A model generated the notes under the pieces. It was not told the DNA's origin and did no database searches. It saw only the letters and a list, made by a program, of their open reading frames with translations. Below, one piece after another: positions 3,786 through 39,056 of a stretch of DNA of 39,280 bases. This DNA is from Candidatus Wolfebacteria bacterium (lineage in GTDB: Bacteria; Patescibacteriota; Minisyncoccia; UBA6257; UBA9933): positions 1-39,280 of the forward strand of contig JAFGBB010000012.1 of assembly GCA_016933365.1 (NCBI GenBank). Direction: 5' to 3'. A program made the translations under genes and the position numbers. Numbering within the stretch: the stretch's first letter is position 1; the number at the start of each line of letters is the position of its first letter.

Positions 3786-3828
3786 AAACTGTTTCAAAAA
3801 CTATTTTTATTTTATATAATTAATAATA

Positions 3829-4671: not shown

Positions 4672-4677
4672 TAAATT

Positions 4678-6267: not shown

Positions 6268-6272
6268 AATAA

Positions 6273-8279: not shown

Positions 8280-8296
8280 TTTAAAATTTTAAAAAT

Positions 8297-10240: not shown

Positions 10241-10250
10241 TTTAATTAAT

Positions 10251-10763
10251 ATGCAATTTCAAGTACCTCAATTTATTGAAGTTGAAAATAAAATTATTGG
10301 TCCGTTGACTATGAAGCAATTTATTTATCTTGCCGCGGCGGGAGCTTTTAGTTTTATTTTTTATTTTATTTTAGAAGTTTGGCTTTGGTTTATTTTAACC
10401 GCGATAATAGGAGGAGTCGCGGTGTCTTTAGCTTTTATTAAATATAATGGCCAACCTTTACCCAAAATAATTATGGCGGCTTTTGGTTTTTTTTGGAAAC
10501 CGAAATTTTTTCTTTGGCAAAGATTAGAAGAAAAAAGAACTGTTTCCGTGGAACAAGAAAGAAAAATTCTTGGAAAATTTTTTGCCGAAACTCCGTCGGT
10601 TAAAAAACTTTGGCAAGATTTAATGACGACAAAAAACCCGATTCCTAAAAGGGAAAGAGGATTGGGAGTTCCGTTTTTGGGAAAACAAGCAAAAGAAAGA
10701 TTTCAATTATTTAGAAAAGCGACTGGCGAACGCGAGATTGCCAGAAGAGTTGATTATAGATAA
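10251..10763 (+). CDS. PrgI-family (VirB3-like) T4SS membrane protein
   Basis: MQFQVPQFIEVENKIIGPLTMKQFIYLAAAGAFSFIFYFIL followed by a second TM helix, which is the characteristic PrgI-family N-terminus. The ORF-track start at 10233 is TTG and overlaps the upstream stop. ATG 10251 is preferred. Confidence 0.75.
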   Translation: MQFQVPQFIEVENKIIGPLTMKQFIYLAAAGAFSFIFYFILEVWLWFILTAIIGGVAVSLAFIKYNGQPLPKIIMAAFGFFWKPKFFLWQRLEEKRTVSVEQERKILGKFFAETPSVKKLWQDLMTTKNPIPKRERGLGVPFLGKQAKERFQLFRKATGEREIARRVDYR

Positions 10764-10787
10764 AAAGTATAAAAATTCAATTTTAAA

Positions 10788-10817
10788 TTGTGAATTTAAA
10801 ATTTTACATTGTATAAT
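10788..10817 (+). promoter_or_regulatory. Candidate internal promoter upstream of the VirB4 N-terminal ORF
   Basis: TTGTGA (10788-10793), 18-nt spacer, consensus TATAAT (10812-10817). The ATG at 10824 is 6 nt downstream. Confidence 0.35.
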
Positions 10818-10823
10818 ATATTT

Positions 10824-11447
10824 ATGCCTAAAGAAGCTCAATCAACCCAACAATTTGTTGAAGTGGAAGAAATAAAAGATGACGTGGTAATTTTAAAAAA
10901 CGGTTCTTTGCGTCGGCTACTTATGGTTTCCGGAATTAACTTTGAATTAAAATCAAAAGAAGAGCAGGATATTATCACTTATTCTTATCAAAATTTTTTA
11001 AACACTTTAGATTTTTCAGTTCAAATTATCATTCATTCCAGAAAGTTAAATATTGAGAATTATCTTGTTAAATTAGCTGACAGGCAAGGGGTTGAAAATA
11101 ATGAATTGTTAAAAAACCAAATTTCTGAGTATATAGAATTTATCAGGTCTTTTGTGGAATTAAACGCGGTAATGGCAAAAACTTTTTTTGTTGTTGTTCC
11201 TTACGACGCAATGTCAATATCTTCAGGAGGAAAAAAACTGCTTGGTATTTTCGGTTTTGGAAAAAATAAAACAAAATCGTCTTTAGACCAAACACTTAAT
11301 CAAAAAATAGTTCAGTTAAACCAAAGAACAGAACAAGTAATTAGCGGATTAAGCCAAATAGGATTACGAGCCGTGGCATTAGAAGGAGAGGAATTAGTTG
11401 AATTATTTTATAATCTTTACAATCCGGAATCAAAGGAGAAAAAATAA
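10824..11447 (+). CDS. VirB4/TrbE-type N-terminal domain encoded as a separate ORF
   Basis: QQFVEVEEIKDDVVILKNGSLRRLLMVSGINFELKSKEEQDIITYSYQNFLNTLDFSVQIIIHS matches the N-terminal region of Gram-positive VirB4/PrgJ/TcpF-type ATPases. ATG 10824 is preferred over the TTG at 10809. The ORF is in the same frame as the next ORF. Confidence 0.7.
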   Translation: MPKEAQSTQQFVEVEEIKDDVVILKNGSLRRLLMVSGINFELKSKEEQDIITYSYQNFLNTLDFSVQIIIHSRKLNIENYLVKLADRQGVENNELLKNQISEYIEFIRSFVELNAVMAKTFFVVVPYDAMSISSGGKKLLGIFGFGKNKTKSSLDQTLNQKIVQLNQRTEQVISGLSQIGLRAVALEGEELVELFYNLYNPESKEKK

Positions 11448-11477
11448 TTTATTAACGCATTAATTATATAATTTATT

Positions 11478-13223
11478 ATGAATGAAAATATAAAAACGCC
11501 TCAAGTTTATAAATCCGGAGAAAAAAATATCCGAGATGTAATTGCGCCGGCAGGTATGGAAGTAAATCCCGGTTATTTAAGACTCGGAAATAAATTTGTT
11601 AAAACGATTTTTATTTTTACTTATCCGCGTTATTTAGCTAGCGGATGGTTTAATCCAATTATAAATTTGCCCGAATTAATGGATGTTTCTATTTTTGTTC
11701 ATCCGATTGACACCGCAATGGCTTTAAGAAATCTTCGTAAAAAGACTGCTCAAATTGAAGCTCAACTTATTGACCGTCAAGAAAAGGGACTGGTAAGAGA
11801 TCCTGTTTTAGAGACCGGATTTCAAGATATTGAAACGCTTAGAGACCAACTTCAACAAGCTCAACAAAGAATGTTTAATATCGGAGTTTATATAACTATT
11901 TACGCTGATACATTAGAAAAACTTGAAAAACTGGAAGAAAGATTAAATTCTTTATTTGAAGCTCAATTAACTTATGCTAAACCGGCGCTTTTTCAGCAGT
12001 TAGAAGGTTTTACTTCAACCTTGCCTTTAAATTCAGATAAAATTTTAATAAATGCTCCTCTTAATTCCGGTCCGGCTTCTTCATTATTTCCTTTTGTTTC
12101 CGTGGATTTAACCTCGGATGAAGGAATTCTTTACGGTATTAATCGTCATAATAATACTTTGGTTATTTTTGACCGTTTTTCTCTTGAAAATGCCAATTCT
12201 GTTCTTTTTGCAAAATCCGGAGCAGGAAAATCATACGCTTGTAAATTAGAAATAATTCGTTCTTTAATGATGGGAGTTGATGTTTTAGTTATTGATCCGG
12301 AAAATGAATATGAAAAATTAGCAGAATCGGTTGGTGGAAGTTTTTTCAAAATATCTTTAACTTCAGAAACTCAAATAAATCCATTTGACATTCCCATTGT
12401 GCCTAAAGGCGAATCCGCGGCAGATATTTTGAAATCGCATATTCTTAATCTTGCCGGACTTGTTAAATTAATGTTGGGAAAAATTACCCCTGAAGAAGAA
12501 GCAATTTTAGATAAAGCTTTAACAGTAACTTATGAGTCTCGCGATATTACTCCTGACAAAAGCGATTTTTCAGATATTAAACCTCCTCTTTTGGAAGATT
12601 TTCAAGTTGTTCTTGAAAGTATGGAGGGAGGAGGCGGTTTAGCTAAAAGACTTGAAAGATTTACAAGGGGAAGCTATGCGGGCTTTACCAATAAACAAAC
12701 AAATATTGATATAAAAAACCGTTTAATAGTTTTTTCAGTTAGAGATTTAGAGGAAGAATTAAGACCGATTGCTATTTATATTATTTTGAATTTTATTTGG
12801 AATTTAATAAGGGCTGATTTTAAAAAACGAATTATGATAATTGATGAAGCTTGGTGGTTAATGAAATATCCAGACAGCGCGTCTTTTCTTTTTTCTTTGG
12901 CAAAACGTTGTCGGAAATATTTTTTAGGATTAACAACTATTACTCAAAATGTTGAAGATTTTTTGGAATCGCCTTATGGTAGACCAATAATTACAAATTC
13001 AGCTCTTCAACTTCTTTTAAAACAAGCGCCGGCGAATATTGATGTCGTGGCAAAAACTTTTAATCTTTCAGAAGCGGAAAAACAGTTATTACTTGAAGCT
13101 AATGTGGGGGAAGGAGTTTTCTTTGCTGGCTTAAAACATGCCGCTATTCAAATTATTGCTTCTTATTTTGAGAATAAAATAATTACCACTAAACCCGAAG
13201 AAATATTGGGAATGGATGAATAA
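11478..13223 (+). CDS. virB4: VirB4-family T4SS ATPase (central and C-terminal ATPase part)
   Basis: 581 aa with Walker A AKSGAGKSY and Walker B IMIIDEAWWL. Also has the conserved YPRYLASGWF segment and a TTITQNVEDF motif typical of VirB4/TraC/CagE-type ATPases. Confidence 0.85.
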   Translation: MNENIKTPQVYKSGEKNIRDVIAPAGMEVNPGYLRLGNKFVKTIFIFTYPRYLASGWFNPIINLPELMDVSIFVHPIDTAMALRNLRKKTAQIEAQLIDRQEKGLVRDPVLETGFQDIETLRDQLQQAQQRMFNIGVYITIYADTLEKLEKLEERLNSLFEAQLTYAKPALFQQLEGFTSTLPLNSDKILINAPLNSGPASSLFPFVSVDLTSDEGILYGINRHNNTLVIFDRFSLENANSVLFAKSGAGKSYACKLEIIRSLMMGVDVLVIDPENEYEKLAESVGGSFFKISLTSETQINPFDIPIVPKGESAADILKSHILNLAGLVKLMLGKITPEEEAILDKALTVTYESRDITPDKSDFSDIKPPLLEDFQVVLESMEGGGGLAKRLERFTRGSYAGFTNKQTNIDIKNRLIVFSVRDLEEELRPIAIYIILNFIWNLIRADFKKRIMIIDEAWWLMKYPDSASFLFSLAKRCRKYFLGLTTITQNVEDFLESPYGRPIITNSALQLLLKQAPANIDVVAKTFNLSEAEKQLLLEANVGEGVFFAGLKHAAIQIIASYFENKIITTKPEEILGMDE

Positions 13224-13264: not shown

Positions 13265-13618
13265 ATGGAAAATACAGAGAAAAAAATTTCATTGCCGGAA
13301 ACAATTCTTTTATTGTTATATATCGTGCCTCTTGACGGTGTTGGAGTAATTCTTCTTTTAATTGGATTAGACGATTTTTTCATTCTTGATGCTTTAACCT
13401 TTCCAGTTACTCAATTTTATTTTAGAATAAAAGGAGTAAAATCAACATATGATTTAATTGCCGGTATATTGGAATTAATCCCTTATATTGGCGCTCTTCC
13501 CATAAAAACCACGGGTGTTTTAATAACAATTTGGATGGCTAATCACCCAAAAACAACAGAATCAGTCGGTAGTATATCAAATATTATAAAAAGTAGTTCT
13601 GGAGCCGTTGTTAAATAA
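13265..13618 (+). CDS. Small integral membrane protein (cluster gene)
   Basis: 117 aa with about three hydrophobic helices. No family recognised. Confidence 0.7.
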   Translation: MENTEKKISLPETILLLLYIVPLDGVGVILLLIGLDDFFILDALTFPVTQFYFRIKGVKSTYDLIAGILELIPYIGALPIKTTGVLITIWMANHPKTTESVGSISNIIKSSSGAVVK

Positions 13619-13621
13619 AAA

Positions 13622-14320
13622 ATGATAAAACAAAATTATAAAATTTTTATTACGATAATATTCTTAATGTTTTTTGCGTTTTTAAATGTTAATGCTCAAA
13701 GTTTTTCTCCTCAATTTTTAATTTCTTGGCAGGCGCAAAATTATGCCCCGACCTGGTATCAAGGCAAAATTTTCCCCGTGAGAGGAACTCCTGTTGAGGT
13801 TAATTTTGAAATAGTTAATAATGGTAAATTAGTTGACCTTTCAGACGTTAAAATTCTTTGGTATATTAACGATGAATTGGCAAAAAATGAAAAAGACGGT
13901 TTGGGAATTAAAACTTTAAAATTTAATGTTTCTGATTATGGCGGAGGCGAAGTTGAAATAAGAATAGTTTTACCTGATTATTTAGAGGGTGAATTATTAG
14001 ATAAAATAATTAAAATTCCAATAGTAATGCCCGAATTGGTAATAAATTCTCCTTATCCTGATAATAAAGTTGAAATTGGAGAATCATTTTTTCAAGCAAT
14101 TCCGTTTTTTTTCAACATTGAATTTATTGATATTCTTTCTATAGATTGGACTGCCAATAATCAAAAATCAATCGGTTTAGCGGAAAACCCTTATTTACTT
14201 AACTTAAATATTAGTTCAGAAACCCCTAAAAATACCGAAATAAATATTTCAGCTTTGGTAAAAAGTATTTTAAATAATTTAGAATTTGCCAATAAAAGCA
14301 TTAAGTTAAACGTGAAATAA
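13622..14320 (+). CDS. Secreted protein (cluster gene)
   Basis: 232 aa with a signal peptide ending NVNAQ and a beta-rich composition. The start lies 4 nt after the upstream stop. Confidence 0.75.
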   Translation: MIKQNYKIFITIIFLMFFAFLNVNAQSFSPQFLISWQAQNYAPTWYQGKIFPVRGTPVEVNFEIVNNGKLVDLSDVKILWYINDELAKNEKDGLGIKTLKFNVSDYGGGEVEIRIVLPDYLEGELLDKIIKIPIVMPELVINSPYPDNKVEIGESFFQAIPFFFNIEFIDILSIDWTANNQKSIGLAENPYLLNLNISSETPKNTEINISALVKSILNNLEFANKSIKLNVK

Positions 14321-14328
14321 AATTTATT

Positions 14329-15168
14329 ATGATTAATAAAATAAATATTAAAAAAGATATTATTGGATTATTTGTTTTCTTTTTCCTTTTTTCTTTTCTT
14401 TTTTTTAATGTTCAAATTTCTTTTGCGGCTGATGAAAATTCAGTAATTAGCGTTAGTTGCGCCAAATATAATTATCCTTGGTGTAAAGAAATTAATGAGG
14501 GATTTGGCGCTTTGGTAAATAATTTTTATACTATTTCTTTGGGATTAGTTGGGGCTTCAGCTTTGGGAGTTTTAATTTATGGAGCGATTTTATGGACGCT
14601 TTCCGGAGCCGTAACCTCAAAACAGGACGCCTTACAATGGATTTGGGGCGCTGTTTGGGGATTAATTCTTTTAATGGGAGCGTATTTAATTCTTAATACT
14701 ATAAATCCTGATTTGATTGATTTAAAAGAACCGGAAATAAAACAAGCGACATTATCGGAAATAAAATTTTCAGGATGGAAACCAAAAGAAGAAACAACAA
14801 ATACAATAAGATATAATTTTGATGCTAAAGGCGAACAATATAATACTCGAGAAAAATGCGAAGCAATAGGTAAAAGAATGTGTGGCGATAATTTTATAGG
14901 GGCTATTTTTAATGAAAAGACGCTTTGTACGGTAGTTTGTAAAAAAGAAAAACAAGCAAGCTCTACGGAAAATGAAGAAGAAAAACCTATGCAATCATTA
15001 GAAGTTTGGGAGGGCAAAATTACGTGTAATGGAACAGGAGGGCTTGCCACTAATGATTGCAGTGGTTTTAGTCAAGAAAATTGTAATGTTAATTGTCAGG
15101 CCGAAATAAAAGATAAATGCGTTAATGGCGGGATAATAAGCTCTTCGTGTAGGATGGTGGAAAATTAA
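14329..15168 (+). CDS. VirB2/TrbC-type T4SS pilin-like protein with Cys-rich C-terminal extension
   Basis: Signal/TM segment, then a two-helix hairpin LGLVGASALGVLIYGAILWTLSGAVTSKQDALQWIWGAVWGLILLMGAYLILNTI, which resembles T4SS pilins common in CPR and Gram-positive systems. It is followed by ~140 extra residues, the last ~105 of which contain 10 Cys. Confidence 0.65.
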   Translation: MINKINIKKDIIGLFVFFFLFSFLFFNVQISFAADENSVISVSCAKYNYPWCKEINEGFGALVNNFYTISLGLVGASALGVLIYGAILWTLSGAVTSKQDALQWIWGAVWGLILLMGAYLILNTINPDLIDLKEPEIKQATLSEIKFSGWKPKEETTNTIRYNFDAKGEQYNTREKCEAIGKRMCGDNFIGAIFNEKTLCTVVCKKEKQASSTENEEEKPMQSLEVWEGKITCNGTGGLATNDCSGFSQENCNVNCQAEIKDKCVNGGIISSSCRMVEN

Positions 15169-15183
15169 TTATTTTTTTAGAAA

Positions 15184-16311
15184 ATGAAAAAAACCGTAAT
15201 CATAATTATCATTGTTTTAGGCGTTCTTGCCATGGGATCGGGTATTTATTTTGCCTGGAGAAAAACCTCTTCAATTTTAACTCCGCCCTTGGGGTCTTCA
15301 ATAGAAGGAGGCTCTTTTTCTGTAATTGAAACAGATATTCCGGAAAATTTAGCTTTAAAAATGAAAATTCTCAATGATCAACCAGCTTTAAATTATTTGG
15401 TTTTTCAGGATTCTGAAAATGGCGAATCAATCTTTTATCTTAATAATGAAGGAATGATTTTAAAAACTGAAGAAGATAAAGACGATGAGATTATAGTTCA
15501 AGAACCGATTGAAAATATTCAATCAATAAAAGCTTCAGCCGATGGCAAGAGAATGATTATTAAATCCGGAGATTTATCTTATCCTAATTTTGTGATTTTT
15601 AACGTTGAAGAAAGAATTTTTGAAGTTTTACCTGAAAATATTACATCTGTTGATTTTTCTCCGGACGCTGAAAGCGTGGCTTATTTGAAAATTAACGGAG
15701 AGAAAAGCGATTTAATCATAAAAAATCTTATTAATACAAAACAAAAAGATATTAATATAATTTCAATTTATCAAAAAGATTTTAATCTTGATTGGATTTC
15801 ATCTTCAAAAATAGTTTTAAGTCCTAAATTTTCAGCTTTTAATTTATCTTCAAATTGGATAGTTGATATTTCTAAAAAAACCATTAATCTTTGGGGAGAA
15901 GAAGCTTATGGTTTAATAACTAAATGGGCTCAAAATGGAGAAATAGGATTGCGTTTTTCTTCGCGCTTAAAAGGAAGAGAAGCATTTTTAAATTTAATAA
16001 ACATAGATGGTCAAATTCGGGCAAATATTAGTTTTCTTACTTTGCCGCAAAAATGTTTTATTGCCGACCCTAAAATTTATTGCGCTATTCCAAATTCTAT
16101 ACCGTCAAAAACGGTTTTACCTGATGATTATTTTAAGAAAGCGTTTTATTCCATAGATTCTTTTTATCAGATTGATGTTAATGAAAATTCACTTTTGGAG
16201 ATTTTTACCGAAACAGACCCCGCTATTGACGCGATAAACTTAAATTTAGTTGGAGATAAACTCTATTTTATTAATAGGTACGATAATGGTATTTATAGTT
16301 TGGAACTATAA
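15184..16311 (+). CDS. Membrane-anchored extracytoplasmic beta-rich protein (last cluster gene)
   Basis: 375 aa with an N-terminal TM helix (VIIIIIVLGVLAMGSGIYFAW). Segments such as DFSPDAESVAYLKINGEKSDL resemble TolB/PD40-type propeller blades; this is tentative. Confidence 0.75.
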   Translation: MKKTVIIIIIVLGVLAMGSGIYFAWRKTSSILTPPLGSSIEGGSFSVIETDIPENLALKMKILNDQPALNYLVFQDSENGESIFYLNNEGMILKTEEDKDDEIIVQEPIENIQSIKASADGKRMIIKSGDLSYPNFVIFNVEERIFEVLPENITSVDFSPDAESVAYLKINGEKSDLIIKNLINTKQKDINIISIYQKDFNLDWISSSKIVLSPKFSAFNLSSNWIVDISKKTINLWGEEAYGLITKWAQNGEIGLRFSSRLKGREAFLNLINIDGQIRANISFLTLPQKCFIADPKIYCAIPNSIPSKTVLPDDYFKKAFYSIDSFYQIDVNENSLLEIFTETDPAIDAINLNLVGDKLYFINRYDNGIYSLEL

Positions 16312-21713: not shown

Positions 21714-21743
21714 AAAAAACACCTTAATAAAAGGTGTTTTTTT
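21714..21743 (+). terminator. Rho-independent terminator
   Basis: Stem acacctt (21719-21725) / aaggtgt (21731-21737), extended by A/T pairs, followed by a T-run to 21743. Confidence 0.7.
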
Positions 21744-21759
21744 GTGACTTAATAATTAG

Positions 21760-21830
21760 TCGGGCCGCCGGGAATCGAACCCGATCTACCTGCTCCCAAA
21801 GCAGGCGTACCACCATCATACGCCGGCCCG
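21760..21830 (-). tRNA. tRNA-Pro (anticodon UGG)
   Basis: The reverse complement folds as CGGGCCG-GC-GTAT-GATGGTG-GTAC-G-CCTGC-TTTGGGA-GCAGG-TAGA-TCGGG-TTCGATT-CCCGG-CGGCCCG-A. Position 8 is G rather than the usual U. CCA is not encoded. Confidence 0.8.
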
Positions 21831-22124: not shown

Positions 22125-25100
22125 TTATTTATTAATTTTCTCTGCCCTTATAATCGCTTCATGCATCGTATCATCGCCATGTTGATAAGTTCCCAATTCT
22201 TTTAATTTAAATTTATAATCCGTATTTTTAGATAATTTTTCCAACTGCTTTAAAATTATCGGATATGAAGTAGCTTCCCTAAGCTGCATATAAATAGGAA
22301 TCGGATTATCTTTTTCTAAAAAATTTCTCTTATATTCTTCAGCAAAAACAATCAAAAGCGACCCGCCAGCTCTCTTATTGCCGTCCGAAGCCAAATCCGA
22401 AACATACAAAACTTTTTCTCCTGTTTCGTGTTCTTCTTTATTATTATATTCACTATTATTTCGTCGTCCTTCATACGCCAATATATATCCGTGAATTTTG
22501 CTATCGGAATCCTGATATTTAAAACTCATGTTCACTCTGTTCTTAGCTTCATTATTGATGTCCTTGGCAATCAAAGCATTTTCCATATTATGCAAATACT
22601 GGATCAAGCTTTCATTGTCACGATATGCCTTGCCTTCTATATAAGCGACCGGCAAACTATCTCGATAAGTTAAGAAGCTGATTCCCTTGGGCCAATTAAC
22701 GGGCATTTTAACCTTTTGTTCGCTTTCAACAACTGGAATAATTTTTTTACTAGTAACTAATTTTTCTTTAGTTTCTTTGGTTAAATCTAAAAGATATGCT
22801 TTTTCATGCAGATTATCGCTATAGCCTACCGGCGCTTCAGGCATAAAAGTATTATTTACTTCAGGCAGATGCCGTAGTGAATCGGAATACCCTTGACCAA
22901 TAATCACCTTACTTGTATCCAAATTTTGCTTGGCAGAATAATTTTTTACATATTCTTGAAAAAAATCACGATAAATTTCTTCGAGTATCTGTCCGGCTAG
23001 TGGATGATTTTTATAATTTTCCGCCAGCTCAATATTATCACAAGTAATAATGCTTGATTTATCTAATAAAACATCTTCACTTATAACCTCGTGCAATTTT
23101 GTTTCGATTGAATTAAGTTTACTTAATAACTTTGCCACATTTTCATTTATATCTTTATCTAAAGTTAAAACACTTTGTGCGATAGTACGAAAATTACCGT
23201 CGGCATTTTTCTTTTGCACAGTGAACAAAGCACAAATCGGATTAAAAGTATAAACATTATTTTTACCGCTACCAAACGGCATACAGCAGGCCGTATCGTT
23301 GCCGGCCACAACACCGTCCGGGTCGCTTTTTTTGTTAATTTTAACGCGATATTCTTCAACTTGCTGTTTCGATCTGAATTGTTCTAATTCTTCCACGACT
23401 GATTCGGGAATATTCTCCTCGCCATTTAAATATTTTTTAAAATCATAACCTTGTTTTTTAAAAAATTGGTTTAATTTAGCAAACAATTTTGAATCACTTT
23501 TTAATTCTTCATTCTCAATAATGCCCAACTTTTTTCTTAATTCTTTGTCCCTAACGCCAATTTGTCTGGCCAAATTTTCCCTAATGTCGGTTTTTCTTTC
23601 TTGTCCCACTTCATAAATTATTTCCATGGGCGTAAAGGCTTGCAAACGATCATAGCTGCCTTCAACCAGCGCATCCCTTAATTCAGTTGCGGTTAAATCT
23701 AAATTTGGAATTTCTATATAATTTGACGGCTTCTTGTGATTATGGACTTCTTCTGATGTATGCGTATCATTATTTTGTAAAAAGCTTTCTGGGTATTCCC
23801 ATAGTTTAAATACTTCTTCCATGGAAATACTCGGATGAAAAGCCAGGGTTTCTATATATTTATACAATTTGTTTTTGCCTTCCTTTTTTAAATTTTGCAA
23901 ATTATCTAGTATTTCGGTCCGGCCCAAAAGCTCGCAAATTTCCCGATATTTTTTTAAATTTTTCCACGAAGAAAATATATTTTTTGTTTCGCCCAACTCT
24001 ATCATTAAGCCTTGCAATTTTTCAATACCTGAATATTCTCTAACTTTTTCGGCTACGTCATTGAAATTATAATCAATACTGCCAACTAAACTATTTAAAT
24101 GATGATGTGCCGTGCCTTCATAATATTGGCCGTCGTCATTAGCAACTTGTGCTAAAATATTATTATAATACGTCGTCGCTTTTAATCCTGAGGCTTCATA
24201 AGACTTAATAATTTGTAAAAAATTGTGTAGTCCATCGTGACGAGTTAATTGTGGTCGTCCTAAATATTTAAACATTTTATTATAGCCAAATATGCTAGCT
24301 GCGTCCTCAAATGGTTTTATGATGTTTTCGTTGTCTTGCCAATTATGATGTTTATTTTTCAATATTTCATAAATTTTTTTATACTTTTCTATTTTGTTTA
24401 AATCAGATAATTCATCTGCTTTATTATCTATCAATATAAACTCACTTGCCATTAGCCCTTCTTTTCTGCCCTGCTCAAAAAATTCCCCATAAAAGTTATT
24501 GTTGTATTTATCAACAAGATCACCTTTACCTGCATCAATTAACATTAATGCGACTTCTTTATGATAAATAGCACTCGCCTTACTCATCCTATCCAATATC
24601 GTATCCAGCAAATCAATTTGATTATTTTCAAGCGAAAATTGTATAATTTCCCTTAGGTTAAATCTGTCAGTGTTATTAGCTATCACATTTATTTCATTTT
24701 TTTTAAATAATTCTACCGCGACTGATTTATTCAGATTGTCAAAATTGCTAATATTTTTTTCAAACATGATCTGCCACTTGTCTTCATATCTCATTCCATT
24801 TTCTTTGAATAATCCTATCATTTTCAAAGCCACTTCGGAATTTAAATTTTTTAATTTACTTATATCTAATTCCTCTCTATCTTCCATGCTCTTCATTGCA
24901 ATTTCGGAGTGATTTGCGTTTTTAAACTTATCGATATGATCAATTATAAGCTCACGATCGTACTTTTTTTCTAAAAGGAGTGGGTATATTCTATTCCATG
25001 TGGTTTCTGGTATATCTATTGAATTATCAAGCGCCATATCTATTCTTCCACATAATTCAATCATCTTTATAAGTATTTCCTCTCGATCAGAATCTCTAAA

Positions 25101-26063
25101 TTTATTTAGGCATTTAGCTACTCCGCTTGCGTTACTTCCTAATTTTTCAATAATTTTAATAACAGCATCTTTTTTAATCACTGAAAAATGTTCGAATTCC
25201 AAATCAACAACATTTTCATGCCCCGCATTTATTAGATTAATAGCTAACTCATTGTTTAAATATTGAGCTGGGCAATTTTCAAAAAATTTTGAATAATGGT
25301 CATAGCCATATTCGACGCATTTAAAAGCCAACTCACTATAATTAAGATTACTGAATTTTTTCAGAATATCATCTATATAATAATATTCTGGTGAGTCAAT
25401 AATTTTAAGTGCTATCTCTTGTTGGTTGATGTTTGAGAAAAAATTTATATTTCTAACAACAGACCCAGCATGTTTTGATTCAATAAGCTTTAAGGCGATG
25501 CCTTGATCAATTCCCTTAAAACATTCTAAATGTTCACTAACAACGCTTGCGCCAAATCCTTGATCTTCCCTGTCATTTTCAATAAGCATTTCTGCCACTT
25601 CTTTGTCAAGACAAGTGATTGTTTTAAATCTATCCCCTAAGCCCCATGCTACGGAAACCAAATCCTTTGTCTTAATTAACTCTACGACAATATCTTTTTG
25701 AACTACATCGTGAAATTTCTTGAGATTTTTCACAACATACTCTCCGGACCCAGCTCTAATGAGCTTTAACGCAATTTCTTGGTGATTAAGCTCTTGAAAT
25801 TTTTCTAAATTTTCAGCAATAAAATATTCTCCTTTAGCTTCAATAAACTTAATAGCGATATTATGATGAAATTGTATTGGTATTTCTGAAAGTATATTAA
25901 AATCAAAATTTTTATAATCCAATGCATCTATTTTTTTTCTCCACTCAACTATTTTCTCCGATTCTTTATAATCATTGGATTTTCCATTTTCAATTACTTT
26001 CCGTATTTCACCGGCTTCGTTTTCGGCTTGCTCCAAATTGTACTGTTTCGGATTTTCTAGCAT
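22125..26063 (-). CDS. Giant (1312 aa) multidomain protein with N-terminal tandem ~30-aa helical repeats, a central Cys-motif domain and a possible GNAT-like C-terminus
   Basis: Uninterrupted 3.9-kb ORF. Residues ~55-540 carry about 14 repeats of the type EIALKLI..G.G..VVKNLKKF....Q. Later features include a GNDTACCMPFGSGKNNVY motif. The C-terminal region (HGYILAYEG...VLYVSDLASDGNKRAGGSLLIVFAEEY) is tentatively acetyltransferase-like. Confidence 0.85.
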   Translation of the reverse strand: MLENPKQYNLEQAENEAGEIRKVIENGKSNDYKESEKIVEWRKKIDALDYKNFDFNILSEIPIQFHHNIAIKFIEAKGEYFIAENLEKFQELNHQEIALKLIRAGSGEYVVKNLKKFHDVVQKDIVVELIKTKDLVSVAWGLGDRFKTITCLDKEVAEMLIENDREDQGFGASVVSEHLECFKGIDQGIALKLIESKHAGSVVRNINFFSNINQQEIALKIIDSPEYYYIDDILKKFSNLNYSELAFKCVEYGYDHYSKFFENCPAQYLNNELAINLINAGHENVVDLEFEHFSVIKKDAVIKIIEKLGSNASGVAKCLNKFRDSDREEILIKMIELCGRIDMALDNSIDIPETTWNRIYPLLLEKKYDRELIIDHIDKFKNANHSEIAMKSMEDREELDISKLKNLNSEVALKMIGLFKENGMRYEDKWQIMFEKNISNFDNLNKSVAVELFKKNEINVIANNTDRFNLREIIQFSLENNQIDLLDTILDRMSKASAIYHKEVALMLIDAGKGDLVDKYNNNFYGEFFEQGRKEGLMASEFILIDNKADELSDLNKIEKYKKIYEILKNKHHNWQDNENIIKPFEDAASIFGYNKMFKYLGRPQLTRHDGLHNFLQIIKSYEASGLKATTYYNNILAQVANDDGQYYEGTAHHHLNSLVGSIDYNFNDVAEKVREYSGIEKLQGLMIELGETKNIFSSWKNLKKYREICELLGRTEILDNLQNLKKEGKNKLYKYIETLAFHPSISMEEVFKLWEYPESFLQNNDTHTSEEVHNHKKPSNYIEIPNLDLTATELRDALVEGSYDRLQAFTPMEIIYEVGQERKTDIRENLARQIGVRDKELRKKLGIIENEELKSDSKLFAKLNQFFKKQGYDFKKYLNGEENIPESVVEELEQFRSKQQVEEYRVKINKKSDPDGVVAGNDTACCMPFGSGKNNVYTFNPICALFTVQKKNADGNFRTIAQSVLTLDKDINENVAKLLSKLNSIETKLHEVISEDVLLDKSSIITCDNIELAENYKNHPLAGQILEEIYRDFFQEYVKNYSAKQNLDTSKVIIGQGYSDSLRHLPEVNNTFMPEAPVGYSDNLHEKAYLLDLTKETKEKLVTSKKIIPVVESEQKVKMPVNWPKGISFLTYRDSLPVAYIEGKAYRDNESLIQYLHNMENALIAKDINNEAKNRVNMSFKYQDSDSKIHGYILAYEGRRNNSEYNNKEEHETGEKVLYVSDLASDGNKRAGGSLLIVFAEEYKRNFLEKDNPIPIYMQLREATSYPIILKQLEKLSKNTDYKFKLKELGTYQHGDDTMHEAIIRAEKINK

Positions 26064-26071
26064 AGTTATAT

Positions 26072-26230
26072 TTACTTAATTAAATCATCAACGCCAACCT
26101 CAAGCGCTTTGGCGATTTTTTTAATATTTCAATCGTTGGATTATTTTGTTTTCCTGTTTTAATGTTAATAATCGTATTATTGGAAACATCATTAAGCCGA
26201 GGCAACATCTTTCAATTTCGCTGAATGTAA
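26072..26230 (-). pseudogene. Decayed, 5'-truncated XRE-family helix-turn-helix gene remnant
   Basis: Minus-strand translation gives HTH-like pieces in three frames. These are LHSAKLKDVASA*, then MLPRLNDVSNNTIINIKTGKQNNPTIEILKK, then (after a shift at the A7 run at 26116-26122) IAKALEVGVDDLIK*. The N-terminal part is missing because tRNA-Ser abuts it. Confidence 0.5.
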
Positions 26231-26437: not shown

Positions 26438-27886
26438 ATGAGTATTGAAAAAAATAAAAATTTATTACCTCGTCCTCCTATTGTTGTTATTTTAGGGCAT
26501 GTAGATCACGGAAAAACAACTCTTTTGGACTATATTCGTCGGACAAATGTTGTTGCTAAAGAAGCCGGAGGTATTACTCAGGCAACCGGCGCTTATGAAA
26601 TAATACATTCTTCAAAAGAAGCGGGCGAATCTAGAAAAATAACCTTTATTGATACGCCTGGGCACGAGGCATTTTCTAAAATGCGTGAACGTGGCGCTAA
26701 TGTGGCTGATTTGGGTATTTTAGTTATAGCGGCTGATGAAGGCGTAAAACCTCAAACAAAAGAGGCTATTAAAATTTTACAGGAAAGTAAAATTCCTTTT
26801 ATTGTTGCTATTAATAAAATTGATAGAACTAATGCCGATATTGAAAGAGTTAAAAAAGAGCTTATGGAGGTTGGGGTTTTGTTAGAGGGTTTTGGAGGTA
26901 ATATTTCTTGGCAAGGAATTTCAGCAAAAACCGGAGAAGGAATAAACGAGCTTTTGGATTTAATAATTTTAGCTGCTGAGCTTGAAGATTTATCTTATAA
27001 TTCAGAAAAACAGGGGAGTGGAGTAATTATTGAATCTCAAATGGATAGCAGGCGAGGTTTATCGGTTTCAGCGGTTATAAAAGACGGCGCTTTAAAGGTT
27101 GGCGACGAGATTGCTACGGCTAGTGCTGTGGGAAAAATAAAAATTTTGGAAGATTTTTTAGGTAAACGAGTTAAAAAACTTTATCCTTCAAGTCCGGCTT
27201 TGATTTTAGGTTTTGAAACTTTGCCTCAAACAGGGGAAGAATTTTTTAGCGGAAAAGTAGATTTAGCTGAGATTAAAAAAAATATTTTTGAAGCAGATGC
27301 CGTAAAAGAAGAAAGTACTAAAAACACTGTTAATTTTATTCTTAAGGCTGATGTTTCAGGTTCTCTTGAAGTTCTTGCTGAGATTATTAAAAATATTTCT
27401 GATACTAAGATTATTAATAAATCAGTGGGTGATATTAATGATGGCGATATAAAATCAGCTTTTAGTTCAAACGCCGCTATTATTGGTTTTAAAGTTAAAA
27501 CCAGTAAGGCGGCGGAAAATTTAGCCAAAAATCAAGGGGTAAAAATTATTATTTCAGAAATTATTTATGAACTTATAAAAGAAGTAGAAAAAGAAATCAA
27601 AAATATGAAAGACCCTGAAATTGCCGGTGAATTGGAAATTTTAGCGGTTTTTAACGGAAAGAAAAGTAAAAGACAGGTAATTGGCGGAAAAGTAATTTTA
27701 GGGGATTTTAAAAGCAATTCCATAGTTAAAATTCAAAGAGACGGAAAAGAAATCGGTCAAGGAAAAGTAGTCAATCTTCAATGCGATAAAGAAGACACAG
27801 GACAAGTAAAAGAAGGGAAAGAATGCGGAATTTTATTGGATAGCGATGTTCCAATGAAAGCTGGAGATAAACTTATTTATTGGTAA
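26438..27886 (+). CDS. infB: Translation initiation factor IF-2 (short form lacking the N-terminal extension)
   Basis: The G domain starts almost at the N-terminus ([30 protein letters not shown]), followed by IF-2 domains II to C2. It is only 482 aa. Confidence 0.9.
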
Positions 27887-28165: not shown

Positions 28166-28911
28166 ATGAATACATTTTTTCTGATTGTAATCAGCACTTT
28201 TTTAATGAGCTTAGTCGCTTGGGTAGGATTATTAACGCTTTTTTTAAAAGAGAATTTATTAAAAAAAATAATTTCTTTTTTAGTGGCTTTTTCTGCCGGA
28301 GCTTTACTTGGGGGAGCTTTTTTACATATGGTGCCTGAAGCGCTTTCTGAAAGCGAAAATGTTTTAGCGGTTTTTCTTTGGCTTTTGTTAGGTTTTTGTT
28401 TATTTTTCTTTTGGAACAATTTATTAATTGGCATCATTGTCATAAAGTTCCTTCTGAACACAAAAAACCGGTTACTTATTTAATTTTAATAGCTGATGGA
28501 GTGCATAATTTTATTGGTGGATTAGCAATTGCCGGAGCTTTTATTATTGATATAAGAGTAGGTTTGGTTACTTGGTTGGCTTGCGCTGCCCATGAAATTC
28601 CTCAAGAACTTGGAGATTTTGGAATTTTAATTCATGGCGGTTGGGCAAAGAAAAAGGCTTTACTTTTTAATTTTTTATCGGCATTAACTATTGTTTTTGG
28701 AGGCGTAATTGCTTATTTTATGTCTAGTAATATAAATATTGTTTTTTTATTGCCTTTTGCCGCCGGCAATTTTATTTATATCGCTTGCGCTGATTTACTT
28801 CCGGAAATAAAAAATGAATCAACTTCTTCTCGTAAAAAAGGTTTATTTCATTTTGTTATTTTTTTAATAGGAATATTATTGATTTTAGCCGTGAGATTTA
28901 TTGAGATTTAG
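28166..28911 (+). pseudogene. ZIP-family (ZupT-like) divalent metal transporter interrupted by a frameshift
   Basis: Two overlapping ORFs (28166-28483 and 28378-28911) together give a typical ZIP protein (FLHMVPEAL ... WHHCH ... ADGVHNFIGGLAIAGAF ... AAHEIPQELGDFGIL). The frame changes within the T-runs at about 28391-28413. This is either a true frameshift or a homopolymer sequencing error. Confidence 0.7.
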
Positions 28912-29042: not shown

Positions 29043-29516
29043 ATGAAAAGACGTTCTTGGACAGAAAAACAGTTAAAAGATGCTGTTAAAAAATCTTTTA
29101 GTTACAGACAGGTTTTAAGTAAATTAAATTTGCGTGAAGTCGGGGGAAATTATGAACAGGTTAAGAAATATATAAAAGAATACGAATTAGATATTAGTCA
29201 TTTTAAGGGTCGGGGTTGGAATGCTGGATTGCGAGGGATTGGAAAACCAAGAATTCCCATAGAAAAAATTTTAGTTAAAAATAATGATTTTCAAAGTTTT
29301 AAATTAAAGAAAAGATTATTTAATGCCGGTTTAAAACCCCGGTATTATGAGGAATGTGGTTGGGCAGAAAAAACAAAGGATGGGTATTTACCGTTGGAAT
29401 TAGACCATATTAATGGTGACCGTCATGATAATAGGATAGAAAATTTACGAGTATTGTGTCCGAATTGCCATAGTTTAAAACCAACTCATCGTGGGAGAAT
29501 TAAAAAAAATAAATAG
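29043..29516 (+). CDS. HNH endonuclease (free-standing, homing-type)
   Basis: 157 aa. The C-terminal HNH motif is LELDHINGDRHDNRIENLRVLCPNCHSLK. The N-terminal helical module (FSYRQVLSKLNLREVGGNYEQVKKYIKEYELDISHF) is typical of small HNH proteins. The stop TAG overlaps the first base of tRNA-Leu. Confidence 0.85.
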   Translation: MKRRSWTEKQLKDAVKKSFSYRQVLSKLNLREVGGNYEQVKKYIKEYELDISHFKGRGWNAGLRGIGKPRIPIEKILVKNNDFQSFKLKKRLFNAGLKPRYYEECGWAEKTKDGYLPLELDHINGDRHDNRIENLRVLCPNCHSLKPTHRGRIKKNK

Positions 29517-29598
29517 GGCGAGTGGCGGAACGGTATACGCGCAACACTTAAAATGTTGTGTTCAAAAGAACATGAGGGTTCGAATCCCTCCTCGCCCA
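29516..29598 (+). tRNA. tRNA-Leu (anticodon UAA)
   Basis: GGGCGAG-TG-GCGGAACGGTATACGC-G-CAACA-CTTAAAA-TGTTG, long variable arm TGTTCAAAAGAACA, T-arm GAGGG-TTCGAAT-CCCTC, then CTCGCCC-A. Confidence 0.9.
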
Positions 29599-29626
29599 CA
29601 ATTTAAGGGTTCGTCTTGTTATATAA

Positions 29627-34797: not shown

Positions 34798-34909
34798 TCC
34801 CGGCAAATCCTACTTTCCCAGCTAAAAGCTAGTATCATCGGAGTAATAAGGTTTCACTATTGTGTTCGGAATGGGAACGAGTGTTTCACTTATTACTTAA
34901 TTACCAGGA
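34798..34909 (-). rRNA. rrf: 5S rRNA
   Basis: The reverse complement is tcctggtaa...gttcccattccgaacacaatagtgaaac...gggaaagtaggatttgccggga, with a conserved loop and helix I pairing. It is flanked by a 16-nt inverted repeat (aaaaaaccgtattgat / atcaatacggtttttt). Ends are approximate. Confidence 0.85.
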
Positions 34910-35355: not shown

Positions 35356-36060
35356 CATACAATTTATAATTGTTTAATCCGCTATTACTAACGGTATGGA
35401 CTATACCATCACCCTTTTTAATTTTTTAGGGGGACGACGTATTATAGAAAATAGAAATTTTCTATCCGGTTTTTTAAAACCAAGTCTCTACGGGGTAATG
35501 TATGATTTACGTTTTTTAGAGTAATTTAACTCTCTAAAAATATCTATAAGCTTAAGTAAATTTTCAAAATCTTTTTGATTTTTTACTTTTTCTTTCTTTT
35601 TTAAAATTTTTATCAACAAATCAGCTTGTTTTCTTTTAAGAATTAAAAATGGTTTGATTGATTCAATCAATTTAATAATAGATTTTTTACGATTAACTGT
35701 ATATTCCAGAATTCCATCTTTTCTTTCTCTCATTATTCCTAAATTAAGAAAAGAGAATATAAGCTCAAAATTTTTTCTATTTTTGTTTGATTGAAAAAAA
35801 ACTATATAAGGAGCAATTTGAAATCCATACCGATAAGTTGGATTTGGTTTAGCTTTTACATAGATACTTCCATCGCCATCTAATAATCCTGCAAGATAAG
35901 CTTTATTTGTAGACGAAAAAACTTTAGTCATAAGAATTCATACAAAACTTCCCTCGGTATTATCCTAACATATGACAGGTTAAAATACAATATATATTTA
36001 GGATTTCACCGATATGAGTCGTCTTTTTCATTTCCGATTACTCGGAAAAGCCGCCAATTG
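35356..36060 (-). mobile_element. Group I intron in 23S rRNA at E. coli position U2593/C2594
   Basis: The exons rejoin to gggttcaaaccgt|cgtgagacaggttgg (E. coli GGGUUUAGAACGU|CGUGAGACAGUUCGG). The 5' exon ends in U, which can form a U.G pair in a P1 helix (ccgt/gcgg). The intron ends in G and contains a LAGLIDADG ORF. Confidence 0.8.
35488..35931 (-). CDS. Single-motif LAGLIDADG homing endonuclease (I-CreI-like), intron-encoded
   Basis: 147 aa. YLAGLLDGDGSIYVKAKPNPTYRYGFQI and KPFLILKRKQADLLIKIL...LNYSKKRK parallel I-CreI (YLAGFVDGDGSIIAQIKPNQSYKFKHQL; QPFLKLKQKQANLVLKII...LNDSKTRK) as recalled from memory. Confidence 0.85.
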   Translation of the reverse strand: MTKVFSSTNKAYLAGLLDGDGSIYVKAKPNPTYRYGFQIAPYIVFFQSNKNRKNFELIFSFLNLGIMRERKDGILEYTVNRKKSIIKLIESIKPFLILKRKQADLLIKILKKKEKVKNQKDFENLLKLIDIFRELNYSKKRKSYITP

Positions 36061-36135
36061 ACGGTTTGAACCCAGCTCGCGTGCCACTTTAATTGGCGAA
36101 CAGCCAAACGCTTGGGACCTTCTCCAGCCCCGCGC

Positions 36136-36166
<31 letters not shown>

Positions 36167-36191
36167 GGTCGTCGCTAGGAACGCTCGGACC

Positions 36192-36229
<38 letters not shown>

Positions 36230-38160
36230 ATCTTCAATCTTTCTATAAAGAATTGTCGGGTCACTAAGCTCTGCTTTCGCATCGGCGCGGCTTGTAAGCC
36301 TTGCCGTTAAGCCGGCTTTTGCCTTTACACGAAAAGCGCGATTTCCATCCGCGCTTAGCCGACCTTAATAGACTCCTCCGTTACTTTTTAGGAGGATTCC
36401 GCCCCAGAAAAACTACCCACCAGACACTGTCCCCAAACGTTTTTTCCGTTTAGGTTAGACCTTAAAATTTTAAAGATGGGTGTTTCATTGGCGGCTCCAC
36501 TTTGACCGAAATCAAAGCTTCAAAGCCTCCCCACTACACTACGCATTAAAACCCTAAGACCAATATCAAGCTATAGTAAAGCTCCCGGGGTCTTTTCGTC
36601 CCGTTGCAGGTATCCCGCGTCTTTACGGGAATCGCATTTTCACCGAGCTCCTCGTTGAGACAGTTCCCCAGTCGTTACGCCTTTCGTGCGCTTCAGAACT
36701 TACCTGAAAAGGAAATGCGCTACCTTAGAACAGTTATAGTTACCGCTGACATTGACGAGGGCTTCACCCACTCAGCCTTGTTTTACAAAATGCAAAACAA
36801 GACCGGCAGACTTGACCTTCTCGCATCGGTCAGGCGTCACCCCCTATACATTCTCTTACGAGTTCGCAGGGAGCTGTGTTTTTGTTAAACAGTCGCCAGG
36901 GATACTTTCGCTGCGGGACATAACATCTTTATACTTGCGTATAAAATTGCATGTCCAGATCTTATTGCTAACTTACGATCGCTTTTTTGCCGAGTTCCTT
37001 AACGAGGAATCACTCGTTCCCCTGAGGCTACTCGCCTCATCCACCTGTGTCGGTTTTCGGTACGGATTCCGTTAACCAATTTCTTAGAAGTTTTTCTTGA
37101 AAGGCTCTTCAGAAGAATTAATCAGACAAAAGCCTGATTTTTCCCCAATACCCGAATATTGAAATTGAATTCAGTTCACCGGATTTGCCAAATGAACTAT
37201 TCTCGGTATTAGCGATGTCAAACCAATAAGACACTCTTCTTTATTTCCTTTGTCACTCCATCGATGTTTAACGGAAGAACTGGAGTATTAACCAGTTGTC
37301 CATCGATTACGGCTTTCGCCATCACCTTAGGGCCGCCTTACCCTCCGTTGATTTACATTGCGGAGGAAACCTTAGATTTGCGGGGTGCCGTTTTCTCAAC
37401 GGCATTGTGGTTACTCATGCCAACATTCTCTCTTCTAAACACTCCACCCGTCCTCACGGATCGGGCTTCAATGCGTTTAAAATGCTCTCCTACCATTTTT
37501 TATATAATAAATTACATAAAAAATCCGTGTCTTCGGTAATTTGCTTAGCCCCGATAAATTTTCGGCGCAACCCGCCATTCCGTCCGAAGACGGATTCGAA
37601 TAGTGAGTTGTTACACACTCTTTAAAGGATGGCTACCTCTAAGCCAACCTTCTATCTGTCTTTAGCGGATTACTGCCTTTCACACTTAGCAAATATTTAG
37701 GGACCTTATACGACGGTCAGGGCTGTTTCCCTTTTGAACATGGAGCTTAGCCCCCACATTCTGACTACCCCGTTAGATAAAACCGGTATTCGGAGTTTGA
37801 TTGAGTGGCCGAGCTTTCGCCCTGTACCACTCATCCAGTGCTCTACCCCCGGTTCACCGTTAGCGGGGCGCTAGTCCTAAAACTATTTCGGAGAGAACCA
37901 GCTATTGCCAGGCTCGATTAGCTTTTCACTTCTTACCTCAGCTCATCCAAAGATGTTGTACAATCTACTGGTGCGGACCTCCCTTCGACTTTCGTCGAAG
38001 TTCATCCTGGCCAAGGCAAGCTCGCCTGGCTTCGGGTCTATTTTTTACCCTTTTTATTTCGCGCTTTTAACACTTGGTTTCCCTTTGCCTCCGTCCCGTA
38101 AGACTTAGACAAAGGATAAAAAATAACTCGTTGGCTCATTCTTCAATAGGCACAGTATCA

Positions 38161-38318
38161 CCCATTGCTTCGCAATGGGAATTTCTAATTTCTAAATCCT
38201 AATTTCCAATAAATTTATTAATGATTTAATGCTTAAATTTAAAAACATTATTTCATTGAGATTTAATTAGAAATTTAAAATTTGAAATTCGGAATTCCGA
38301 ATTGCGAAGCAATTCGGG
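38161..38318 (-). other. AT-rich intervening-sequence-like insertion in 23S helix 25 region
   Basis: About 158 nt with no E. coli counterpart are inserted where E. coli has the short hairpin GCACGCUUAGGCGUGU. The insertion is bounded by cccattgcttcgcaatggg (38161-38179) and ccgaattgcgaagcaattcgg (38297-38317). Their 13-nt cores are mutually complementary. Confidence 0.65.
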
Positions 38319-38376
38319 CTTTACTTCCTTGTAAGCATATGGTTTCAGGTACTATTTCACCGGCTTTACCAGCCTG

Positions 38377-38413
<37 letters not shown>

Positions 38414-39056
38414 ATCATCAAATGTATTTAGCCTTACCGGATAGTGCCGGCAGATTCCTCCGAAGTTTTCTGTCCTCGGAGTACTCAAGAACAAGAAAAT
38501 TGGTTGTTTCATTTTCGCCTACAGGGTTTTCACCTTCTTTGACAAGCCTTTCCAGGGCTTTTCGGCTAATAAAACAATTTATAACCAATTTTCCGTTTAT
38601 GTTCCCGCGGGAAATTTTCGCGGAAACATAAACAGAAGTTTTCCAGTCTTACTACCCCAGCTTATAAAAATATGCTGGTTTGGGCTCTTCCCTTTTCACT
38701 CGCCGCTACTTGGGGAATGTGCGCGCAAAAGCGCGCGTTTTTTTCTTTTCCTCCGCTTACTAAGATGTTTCAATTCAGCGGGTACGCTCTCCGATTTAAA
38801 ATCGGAGTAATTACGGTTTACGTAATTGGGTTTTCCCATTCGGAAATCCCCGGATCACAGATTGCTAAGCATCTCCCCGAGGCTTATCGCAGCCACGCCA
38901 CGTCCTTCATCGCCATTTGATGTCAAGGCATCCACCATACGCCCTTAATTTACTGTCTCTACCCGGCGCTCGTTTTTTTATTAACCGGGTTGAGGATTTA
39001 AATAATTTTTCTCCATATTTAATTTTCAATGGACAATCGTTTCAGGAAAAGCAGGT

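Follow-up and report, generated by a model that had tools for sequence, protein, structure and literature searches.

A large Patescibacteria protein family with a variable acidic repeat arm and a predicted tandem GNAT module

The window analysed here, a 39,280-bp contig of Candidatus Wolfebacteria (Patescibacteria) with a G+C content (GC) of ~30%, carries a gene for a 1312-residue protein in which a repeat arm precedes a conserved module, and the last ~415 residues of this module are predicted to form two successive GNAT folds. We propose that the protein is a modular acyltransferase aimed at its target by an acidic recognition solenoid, a reading to which we give about an even chance. The gene, whose product is the NCBI hypothetical protein JW698_01025, is a complete open reading frame (ORF) of 1312 codons plus stop on the minus strand (22125-26063), with an ATG start and the stop codon at 22125-22127; the coordinates of all features within it refer to that strand. 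It is the longest ORF of the window, as stated in the initial annotation, which had been made from the sequence alone, and the runner-up encodes 721 residues.

The 1312-residue gene is real. Homologue P0002 is a full-length orthologue (residues 1-1309 aligned, 53% identity), and the layout of P0003-P0007 matches that of the window protein. The gene is not a chimera of the assembly, because full-length orthologues are present in other assemblies. A search for a DNA-level tandem repeat within 22125-26063 found none, and a repeat collapsed during assembly is therefore of no concern. No known family matched the protein from end to end.

Residues ~560-1312 are conserved as a single block in the family alignment and constitute a constant module. 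When 1.84 billion representative proteins were searched with a profile, at least 578 clusters were found to contain this module at E<=1e-3, of which 352 reach E<=1e-30. The match extends over the entire ~750 residues in nearly all of them, nearly all are labelled Patescibacteria, and in members with a single module it lies at the C-terminus. The named members are all 'hypothetical' Patescibacteria proteins, and the lineages represented are Wolfe-, Komeili-, Kerfeld-, Falkow-, Magasanik-, Buchanan-, Morani-, Doudna-, Berkel-, Gracili-, Peregrini- and Peribacteria. When species-representative genomes were scanned for the motif [AL]GNDTxCCM, 50 loci were obtained, which span Parcubacteria and Paceibacterota lineages as well as Berkel-, Doudna-, Nomura-, Gracili-, Peregrini- and Peribacteria; a few of the automated assemblies concerned are labelled Gammaproteobacteria, Bdellovibrionales or Bacteroides, labels that seem doubtful to us. 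In an alignment of 197 members, 70 residues are shared by at least 95% of the sequences. The segments GTAHHHLNS and HTSEEVHNHKKPSN, the His-rich stretches already recorded in the initial annotation, are conserved motifs and not low-complexity sequence.

No part of the protein has a significant match in Pfam, NCBIfam, PADLOC, PHROGs or the PDB sequences, whether searched as a single sequence, as profiles or with 20-34 members per domain. These searches included separate profiles of the Cys-motif domain, GNAT-2, the helical domain and triple repeats against the PDB sequences, and members taken one by one against Pfam. The earlier statement that most of the protein could not be placed thus holds for curated sequence families, but the protein is no orphan, and the Cys-motif domain, then unassigned, has a GNAT fold according to AlphaFold and Foldseek. 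The longest members examined (P0054, P0091, P0140 and P0090) contain no Pfam domains, and so no recognised domain fusion. Among the giant members, P0141 (7703 residues) has three and P0017 (5715 residues) two complete ~750-residue modules in one ORF, which may be either true fusions or read-through of tandem paralogues. Neither the family nor its Cys-loop GNAT, helical domain or 28-residue repeat is described in the full-text literature and libraries searched, while GNAT folds and repeat-guided enzymes as such are already known.

An AlphaFold2 model of residues 545-1312 (pLDDT 75.9, pTM 0.69) comprises a helical region followed by two alpha/beta domains. The first of these, GNAT-1 (residues 897-1112; 22728-23375), is the Cys-motif domain, and was also modelled separately from a 34-sequence alignment (pLDDT 84.7, pTM 0.85). 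All of the top 50 Foldseek matches of this second model in the PDB are GNAT folds (probability 0.99-1.0), the best E value being 4e-4 for dopamine N-acetyltransferase. Further matches include the toxin 7byy, Kre33/NAT10, RimI, AtaT, TacT, KacT and GmvT. The core strands of a GNAT-type beta-sheet and helix alpha3 are present in the model, but a loop takes the place of alpha1-alpha2 and there is no alpha4. On this predicted structure, the Cys-motif region is a second GNAT fold next to that of the C-terminus.

The loop that stands in place of alpha1-alpha2, KSDPDGVVAGNDTACCMPFGSGKNNVYTFNP (residues 911-943; 23235-23333), is near-invariant in the family as KSDPxGVxAGNDTxCCMPFGSGKNNVYTFNP, and is modelled at low confidence. 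Its Cys motif, VAGNDTACCMPFGSGKNNVY (residues 919-938; 23250-23309), is the most conserved stretch of the family. With a GC of 48% against 32% for the whole gene it falls in the 97th percentile of 60-nt windows, which bears out the GC-richer stretch noticed earlier at 23270-23320. At least 95% of the 197 members have Cys927 (codon 23283-23285), while Cys926 is replaceable by N or R. Strand beta4 of GNAT-1 carries an invariant D1009-N1010-x-E1012. The CoA (coenzyme A) loop motif is absent from this domain, and there is no conserved Gly at the equivalent position.

The second alpha/beta domain, GNAT-2 (residues 1113-1312; 22128-22727), was delimited from the secondary structure of the model, Foldseek and conservation. 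Its elements follow the canonical order b1-a1-a2-b2-b3-b4-a3-b5-a4-b6-b7 in the model. The PDB matches of the 545-1312 model are almost entirely GNATs. Those to single-GNAT proteins (Naa10, EctA, polyamine acetyltransferase) extend over 183-198 columns, i.e., the length of the last domain, with a probability of 1.0 and a TM-score to the target of 0.5-0.6. In GNATs the start of alpha3 binds the pyrophosphate of CoA. The corresponding position of GNAT-2 is occupied by K1230-R-A-G1233-G-S, a partial counterpart of motif A (Q/R-x-x-G-x-G/A), in which only G1233 is conserved (at least 85%). D1223 is located on beta4, and R1262, T1265, S1266 and Y1267 at the start of alpha4. The sole PDB profile match of GNAT-2, a weak one to the GNAT 4e0a (E=1.3), aligns exactly at beta4-alpha3. 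The GNAT-like C-terminus with its KRAGGS segment, which had been recognised from the letters, is hence recovered as a GNAT fold in the AlphaFold model.

Because both GNAT-1 and GNAT-2 show GNAT folds in the models, the C-terminal ~415 residues are predicted to be a tandem GNAT. Weaker matches of the module model to tandem-GNAT proteins, namely NMT, 3n7z and MAB_4324 (7q3a), extend over 367-462 columns (TM-score 0.18-0.25, probability 0.3-0.7, rmsd 15-21 A), and the best match in BFVD, a library of viral structures, is a viral NMT. An internal duplication that would have given rise to GNAT-1 and GNAT-2 was considered and rejected, since the hhalign comparison of their profiles is not significant and only beta4-alpha3 lines up.

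The known enzymes of this fold resemble the window protein in some respects and differ from it in others. Single-domain GNATs such as Naa10, RimI, EctA, dopamine N-acetyltransferase and AtaT/TacT share the predicted beta-sheet core with both domains, and with GNAT-2 they would also share the full strand and helix order and the Gly-containing loop at the start of alpha3. There is, however, no sequence match to them, and motif A is partial in GNAT-2 and absent in GNAT-1. In addition, GNAT-1 has a 30-residue invariant Cys loop for alpha1-alpha2 and no alpha4, and the two domains end a protein of 1300 residues. Tandem-GNAT enzymes (NMT, MshD, the Eis-like 3n7z, MAB_4324) likewise have two successive GNAT folds in one chain, with donor binding in one half and the shaping of the acceptor site left to the other, and this is the division of labour that we propose for the window protein. 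Their global superposition on the module model is nevertheless poor, as the values given above indicate, and sequence similarity is lacking; moreover, the proposed donor half of the window protein is the C-terminal one, and a helical domain and a repeat arm are added.

In the proposed mechanism, the tandem GNAT module would transfer an acyl group, probably acetyl from acyl-CoA, to a target captured by the arm. GNAT-2 is the likely donor site for acyl-CoA, because the canonical fold and part of the pyrophosphate-binding loop are kept. The Cys927 loop and the D-N-x-E strand of GNAT-1 might provide the acceptor site, or else Cys927 might carry a covalent Cys-acyl intermediate. The module is likely to be catalytically competent, since conserved polar residues sit on the predicted active-site elements of a GNAT: C927 and D1009/N1010/E1012 (beta4) in GNAT-1, and D1223, G1233, R1262, T1265 and S1266 in GNAT-2.

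The same features of GNAT-1 could be explained by a transferase that does not depend on CoA, working like the dupli-GNAT aminoacyl-tRNA transferases (FemX, MprF, L/F-transferase, Ate1) or with another activated donor, whose nucleotide or phosphate would be bound by the GSGKN/Cys loop. GNAT-1 is the most conserved part yet has neither the CoA pyrophosphate motif nor alpha4, and it stands alone in related proteins. The invariant G931-x-G933-K934 might be read as a phosphate-binding turn, which it resembles, and one homologue is encoded directly upstream of MraY-MurD-FtsW-MurG-MurC-MurB. This context of the dcw cluster is, however, found at a single locus; FemAB, MprF and ATE (or DUF2156) have no sequence match in Pfam, neither model has a dupli-GNAT enzyme in its top 50 Foldseek matches, and features of the CoA type are kept in GNAT-2. 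We therefore consider a CoA-independent reaction improbable.

Between the arm and the GNAT domains lies a conserved all-helical domain of ~325 residues (residues 572-896; 23376-24350), with helices predicted by AlphaFold at pLDDT 80-90. No relative of this domain was detected in the PDB or Pfam by profile and member scans. The residues conserved throughout the family include H609, D610, Q639, D643, W700 and G802. Within it, the loop of residues 764-786 (NDTHTSEEVHNHKKPSNYIEIPN; 23706-23774) is predicted to be disordered (pLDDT 33-40), and despite this it is near-invariant across the family as H768...K777-K778-P779-S780-N781-Y782, with K778, P779, S780 and N781 conserved in at least 95%. It may be a site of partner binding or of self-modification. 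The helical domain is preceded by a poorly conserved linker (residues 527-571; 24351-24485; column conservation 0.17-0.41), which connects the constant module to the repeat array.

The array (residues 67-526; 24486-25865) was delimited by autocorrelation and by a profile hidden Markov model (HMM), and consists of ~16 units of 28 residues. In the N-terminal 600 residues the BLOSUM autocorrelation is highest at lag 28, and the HMM, iterated over homologues, detects 12 significant and ~4 degenerate units, the weaker ones being degenerate or having short insertions. The consensus of the HMM is KEIALKLIEAGQGEYVAENLDKFQGLDH, i.e., KEIALKLIEAGxGxxVAxNLxKFxGLDH. The array and its signature had been noticed previously, but the period of 30-35 residues assigned to it then is replaced by 28. 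The net charge of the array is -18, and its 28-residue repeat was found again in 60 of the fetched proteins. Its pattern of residues suggests a helix-loop-helix unit. The repeat has no match among the Pfam repeat families, and the HEAT, ARM, TPR, ankyrin, PPR and Sel1 profiles have no hit in the window protein. In the homologues these profile searches returned scattered sub-threshold fragments only (Sigma70_r4_2, GIPC1_GH2, Hairy_orange, and one Ank and one Arm_3 at E>=0.03), while a profile of three repeats had a single marginal match among the PDB sequences, to the helices of the pyrin domain (PYD) of AIM2 (E=0.003). Precomputed Pfam labels on P0009 and P0011 (NgoMIV_restric, Sigma70_r4_2, ACCA) might have pointed to fusions with a restriction nuclease or a sigma factor. 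In a re-scan they proved to be short sub-fragments within the repeat array, with 0 independent stretches, and were dismissed as repeat artefacts.

The 28-residue repeat is also joined to other C-termini. In P0008-P0015 it precedes different tails that end in a GNAT-1-like domain, without GNAT-2; examples are GEDTYCCM...VMDNIEAN, GNYCPCCICID...VIDNIEAN and GHIADACW...IRGxNPxxN. A profile of these tails found only 18 short unannotated fragments and no wider superfamily, and the genes of the relatives that lack GNAT-2 have no conserved partner gene. Conversely, the constant module is combined with other arms. Only 61 of the 215 members fetched have the 28-residue repeat; the others carry repeats of 39, 34 or 33 residues, or long, non-repetitive, helical-looking extensions without a Pfam domain, and repeat numbers differ. 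Of 189 members, 96% have an acidic arm; the median is -4.6 charges per 100 residues, and each regular repeat contributes about -3.

Within regular arrays the variation is not evenly spread and clusters at repeat positions 9, 11, 13, 14 and 17 (27-column profile), which are presumed to be the inter-helix loop and the first turn of the second helix. A 728-kb contig (ENA ERZ25070786 ctg150230c, GC 58%) encodes six paralogues, with 81-96% identity between their modules (92-96% within a group of five) and with 28-residue arrays of differing length and content; three of the six genes are in tandem (locus L005, 7004-15086). For 14 in-register repeats of a locus on this contig, a crude estimate from a small sample, the nonsynonymous rate (pN) is 0.52 at positions 10, 12, 13 and 16 of the 28-residue unit, against 0.13 elsewhere and a mean synonymous rate (pS) of 0.28. 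These values suggest diversifying selection at the loop positions. In some genomes the repeats are near-identical save for a few loop residues, and in some the family takes up several percent of the coding capacity. The window's own array is old and degenerate.

In the modular acyltransferase that we propose, the variable acidic N-terminal arm, ~16 x 28 residues in the window protein, would be an alpha-solenoid whose hypervariable loop residues recognise the target. We speculate that its acidity suits basic, Lys-rich targets; it argues against the binding of nucleic acid. A bolder form of this proposal, which we regard as quite unlikely, holds that the 28-residue arrays form a hitherto undescribed kind of code-like recognition repeat in which four loop positions diversify, and that arrays are shuffled among near-identical paralogues so as to aim a dedicated tandem-GNAT 'writer' at different host targets, probably a basic protein or polymer. 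Such a system would be an analogue, in Patescibacteria, of the TAL effectors in logic, but unlike them enzymatic and not directed to DNA. The comparison with TAL effectors and other repeat-variable binders (TALE-likes, PPR, PUF, ankyrin, ARM) is apt in that these consist of short helical units in tandem, as the arm is predicted to do, with variation focused on loops, near-identical repeats (here in some genomes) and paralogues that differ in repeat number and content. With TAL repeats proper, which have a two-residue variable loop and a basic surface and bind DNA, the analogy extends only to the focus of variation on loops. In contrast, the unit is of 28 rather than 33-35 residues, the arrays are acidic rather than basic, no sequence match exists in the PDB or Pfam, and the arm of this family is fused to an enzyme module and, in the window, shows its age.

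The likeness to TAL effectors could be carried further by taking the protein for a non-catalytic scaffold or programmable binder, whose GNAT folds would be pseudoenzymes and whose arm would, in the extreme case, bear a TALE-like code and bind nucleic acid. The degeneracy of the canonical GNAT motifs fits this idea, as do the near-identity of the repeats outside a few loop residues and the differences in repeat number among paralogues, which recall the families of TAL effectors. We nevertheless consider it very improbable. Many of the 70 residues conserved in at least 95% of members are polar and sit on active-site elements, which argues for catalysis; acidic arms are unfavourable for the binding of DNA or RNA; and TALE, PPR, PUF, HEAT, ARM, TPR and ankyrin models have no sequence match.

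Several observations weigh against the modular acyltransferase as well. Because none of the GNAT families in Pfam, NCBIfam or the PDB is matched at the sequence level (26-34 members per domain), membership of the GNATs rests on predicted folds, and the Foldseek E values are only 1e-3 to 4e-4, with TM-scores of 0.4-0.6. The motif Q/R-x-x-G-x-G/A is only partly kept in GNAT-2 and missing from GNAT-1. The invariant Cys loop is modelled at low confidence, and so is its placement relative to either active site. P0009, P0010, P0014 and P0015 end after the GNAT-1-like domain, and therefore GNAT-1 must work, or bind the donor, alone in these relatives. The helical nature of the arm is deduced from a residue pattern, and no conserved gene neighbour in ~57 loci points to a pathway.

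Bacterial acetyltransferase effectors acylate host proteins, and the initial annotation had suggested a host-interaction or effector role. An effector exported into the episymbiont's host cell or onto its surface would bind host proteins with its solenoid and acylate them with its GNAT module; this is compatible with the modular acyltransferase and differs from it only in location. Several characteristics are those expected of such a protein: the family is almost wholly confined to Patescibacteria, it is expanded in copy number, one genome having copies that share near-identical modules but differ in their arrays, its loop residues show diversifying substitution, and many members are on short contigs, as is the case for variable genes that are hard to assemble. 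Genes for a PrgI-family protein and a VirB4/TraG-type ATPase are, moreover, present in the window (10233-13223, plus strand), within a same-strand run of large ORFs without a Pfam match; the large unannotated ORFs beside them are at 2706-10240 and 13265-16311.

These genes, which resemble those of a type IV secretion system (T4SS), are nonetheless 9 kb from the 1312-residue gene, and a histidine kinase, Fpg and tRNA genes lie between. No recurrence of T4SS genes, the co-occurrence that the initial annotation had wished to see checked, was observed in the 6-10 kb around homologues (~57 loci). Clustering of 430 neighbouring ORFs from 56 loci and the window revealed no neighbour conserved in more than 4 of them, those reaching 4 being a histidine kinase and SecA. 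The neighbours are housekeeping genes, e.g., RRF-RseP-HPF-[gene]-SecA, NifU-NifS-[gene]-MraY-MurD-FtsW-MurG-MurC-MurB, and a position near PheRS. Furthermore, the window protein has no signal peptide or transmembrane helix, in agreement with the earlier observation (the N-terminus is hydrophilic, and the maximum 19-residue Kyte-Doolittle average is 1.11), and inspection by eye of ~70 N-termini of the family revealed none. The effector suggestion thus received no direct support, and no secretion signal was found; we consider export unlikely, albeit worth keeping in view.

The hydrophilic N-terminal 66 residues (25866-26063) do contain a leader-like motif, recognised by comparison of N-termini: M.E....YNLEQAxxEAxxIxKVxxxG...Y, common to the window protein, P0002, P0018, P0033, P0194 and P0196. 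In the form M(P/L)E..(Y)N(L)E(E/Q)A..EA..I+.KV.SG.A..Y..AE it stands ahead of arrays of differing repeat types, and it may be a targeting or export signal. Some other members of the family begin instead with a zinc-ribbon-like motif, CPQCGGIHEPGNC.

A role in immunity has also been weighed, in which the arm would sense a phage component and set free a toxic activity of the GNAT module, e.g., acetylation of aminoacyl-tRNA, with abortion of the infection as the outcome. Among the top structural neighbours of GNAT-1 are the tRNA-acetylating toxins AtaT, TacT, KacT and GmvT as well as the toxin 7byy, and defence proteins typically couple a variable sensor to a constant effector. A small gene for an XRE-family helix-turn-helix (HTH) protein of 79 residues (locus L001, 7755-7994) ends 6 bp upstream of P0003, the closest orthologue, and is seen upstream of that gene only. 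No such gene, however, precedes the window gene, where a tRNA-Ser gene is found instead, and no antitoxin or partner gene is conserved. PADLOC gives no match, the genes are situated among housekeeping genes and not in defence islands, and the structural matches are to generic GNATs without specific similarity. Type II GNAT toxins (AtaT/TacT/KacT) are proteins of ~170 residues encoded beside a cognate antitoxin, and their likeness to the 1312-residue protein is at the level of the fold only. Immunity therefore appears to us a poor candidate for the function of the family.

The gene is flanked by tRNA-Ser (upstream) and tRNA-Pro, and adjoins IF2. Upstream of the start codon there is a promoter-like site, TTAACA, 17 nt, AATAAT (26140-26168, minus strand), which is a consensus match only. 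Downstream and on the same strand, tRNA-Pro(UGG) (21759-21830) is followed by a terminator-like hairpin (21714-21742), and the two together (21714-21830) are possibly the end of the transcription unit. The adjoining GTPase gene (26438-27886, plus strand) encodes only 482 residues and clusters with the genes annotated as IF-2 by Pfam on a related contig; presumably it is a short IF2 in which the long N-terminal region of most bacterial IF2 is absent.

Other genes of the window deserve mention. A 147-residue ORF (35488-35931, minus strand) between the 23S rRNA (35983-38958) and 5S rRNA (34798-34908) genes encodes a LAGLIDADG homing endonuclease of the I-CreI/I-MsoI type (PDB phmmer E=8.5e-35), which is apparently free-standing in the 23S-5S spacer and not within an intron detected by Rfam. 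An ORF for an HNH endonuclease (29043-29516, plus strand) ends exactly at the start of tRNA-Leu(UAA) (29516-29599). A ZIP zinc-transporter ORF (28378-28911, 177 residues) matches the Pfam Zip model over positions 165-321 of 323, its C-terminal half only, and an overlapping ORF at 28166-28483 is a candidate for the other half; if it is, the ZIP gene may be frameshifted or split.

The genomes of Patescibacteria are tiny, and no function is assigned to most of the proteins specific to the lineage. The family described here is large, almost exclusive to these organisms, and laid out as a variable recognition arm with a constant enzyme. It merits curated profile models of the 28-residue repeat, the helical domain and the Cys-loop GNAT. 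The two GNAT assignments, together with the invariant residues C927, D1009, N1010, E1012, D1223, R1262, T1265 and S1266, make the question of catalysis accessible to mutagenesis. If the module is indeed an active acyltransferase, the family would represent a major protein-modification system of Patescibacteria episymbionts that has so far escaped notice, and a candidate route by which these may manipulate proteins of their hosts or their own.

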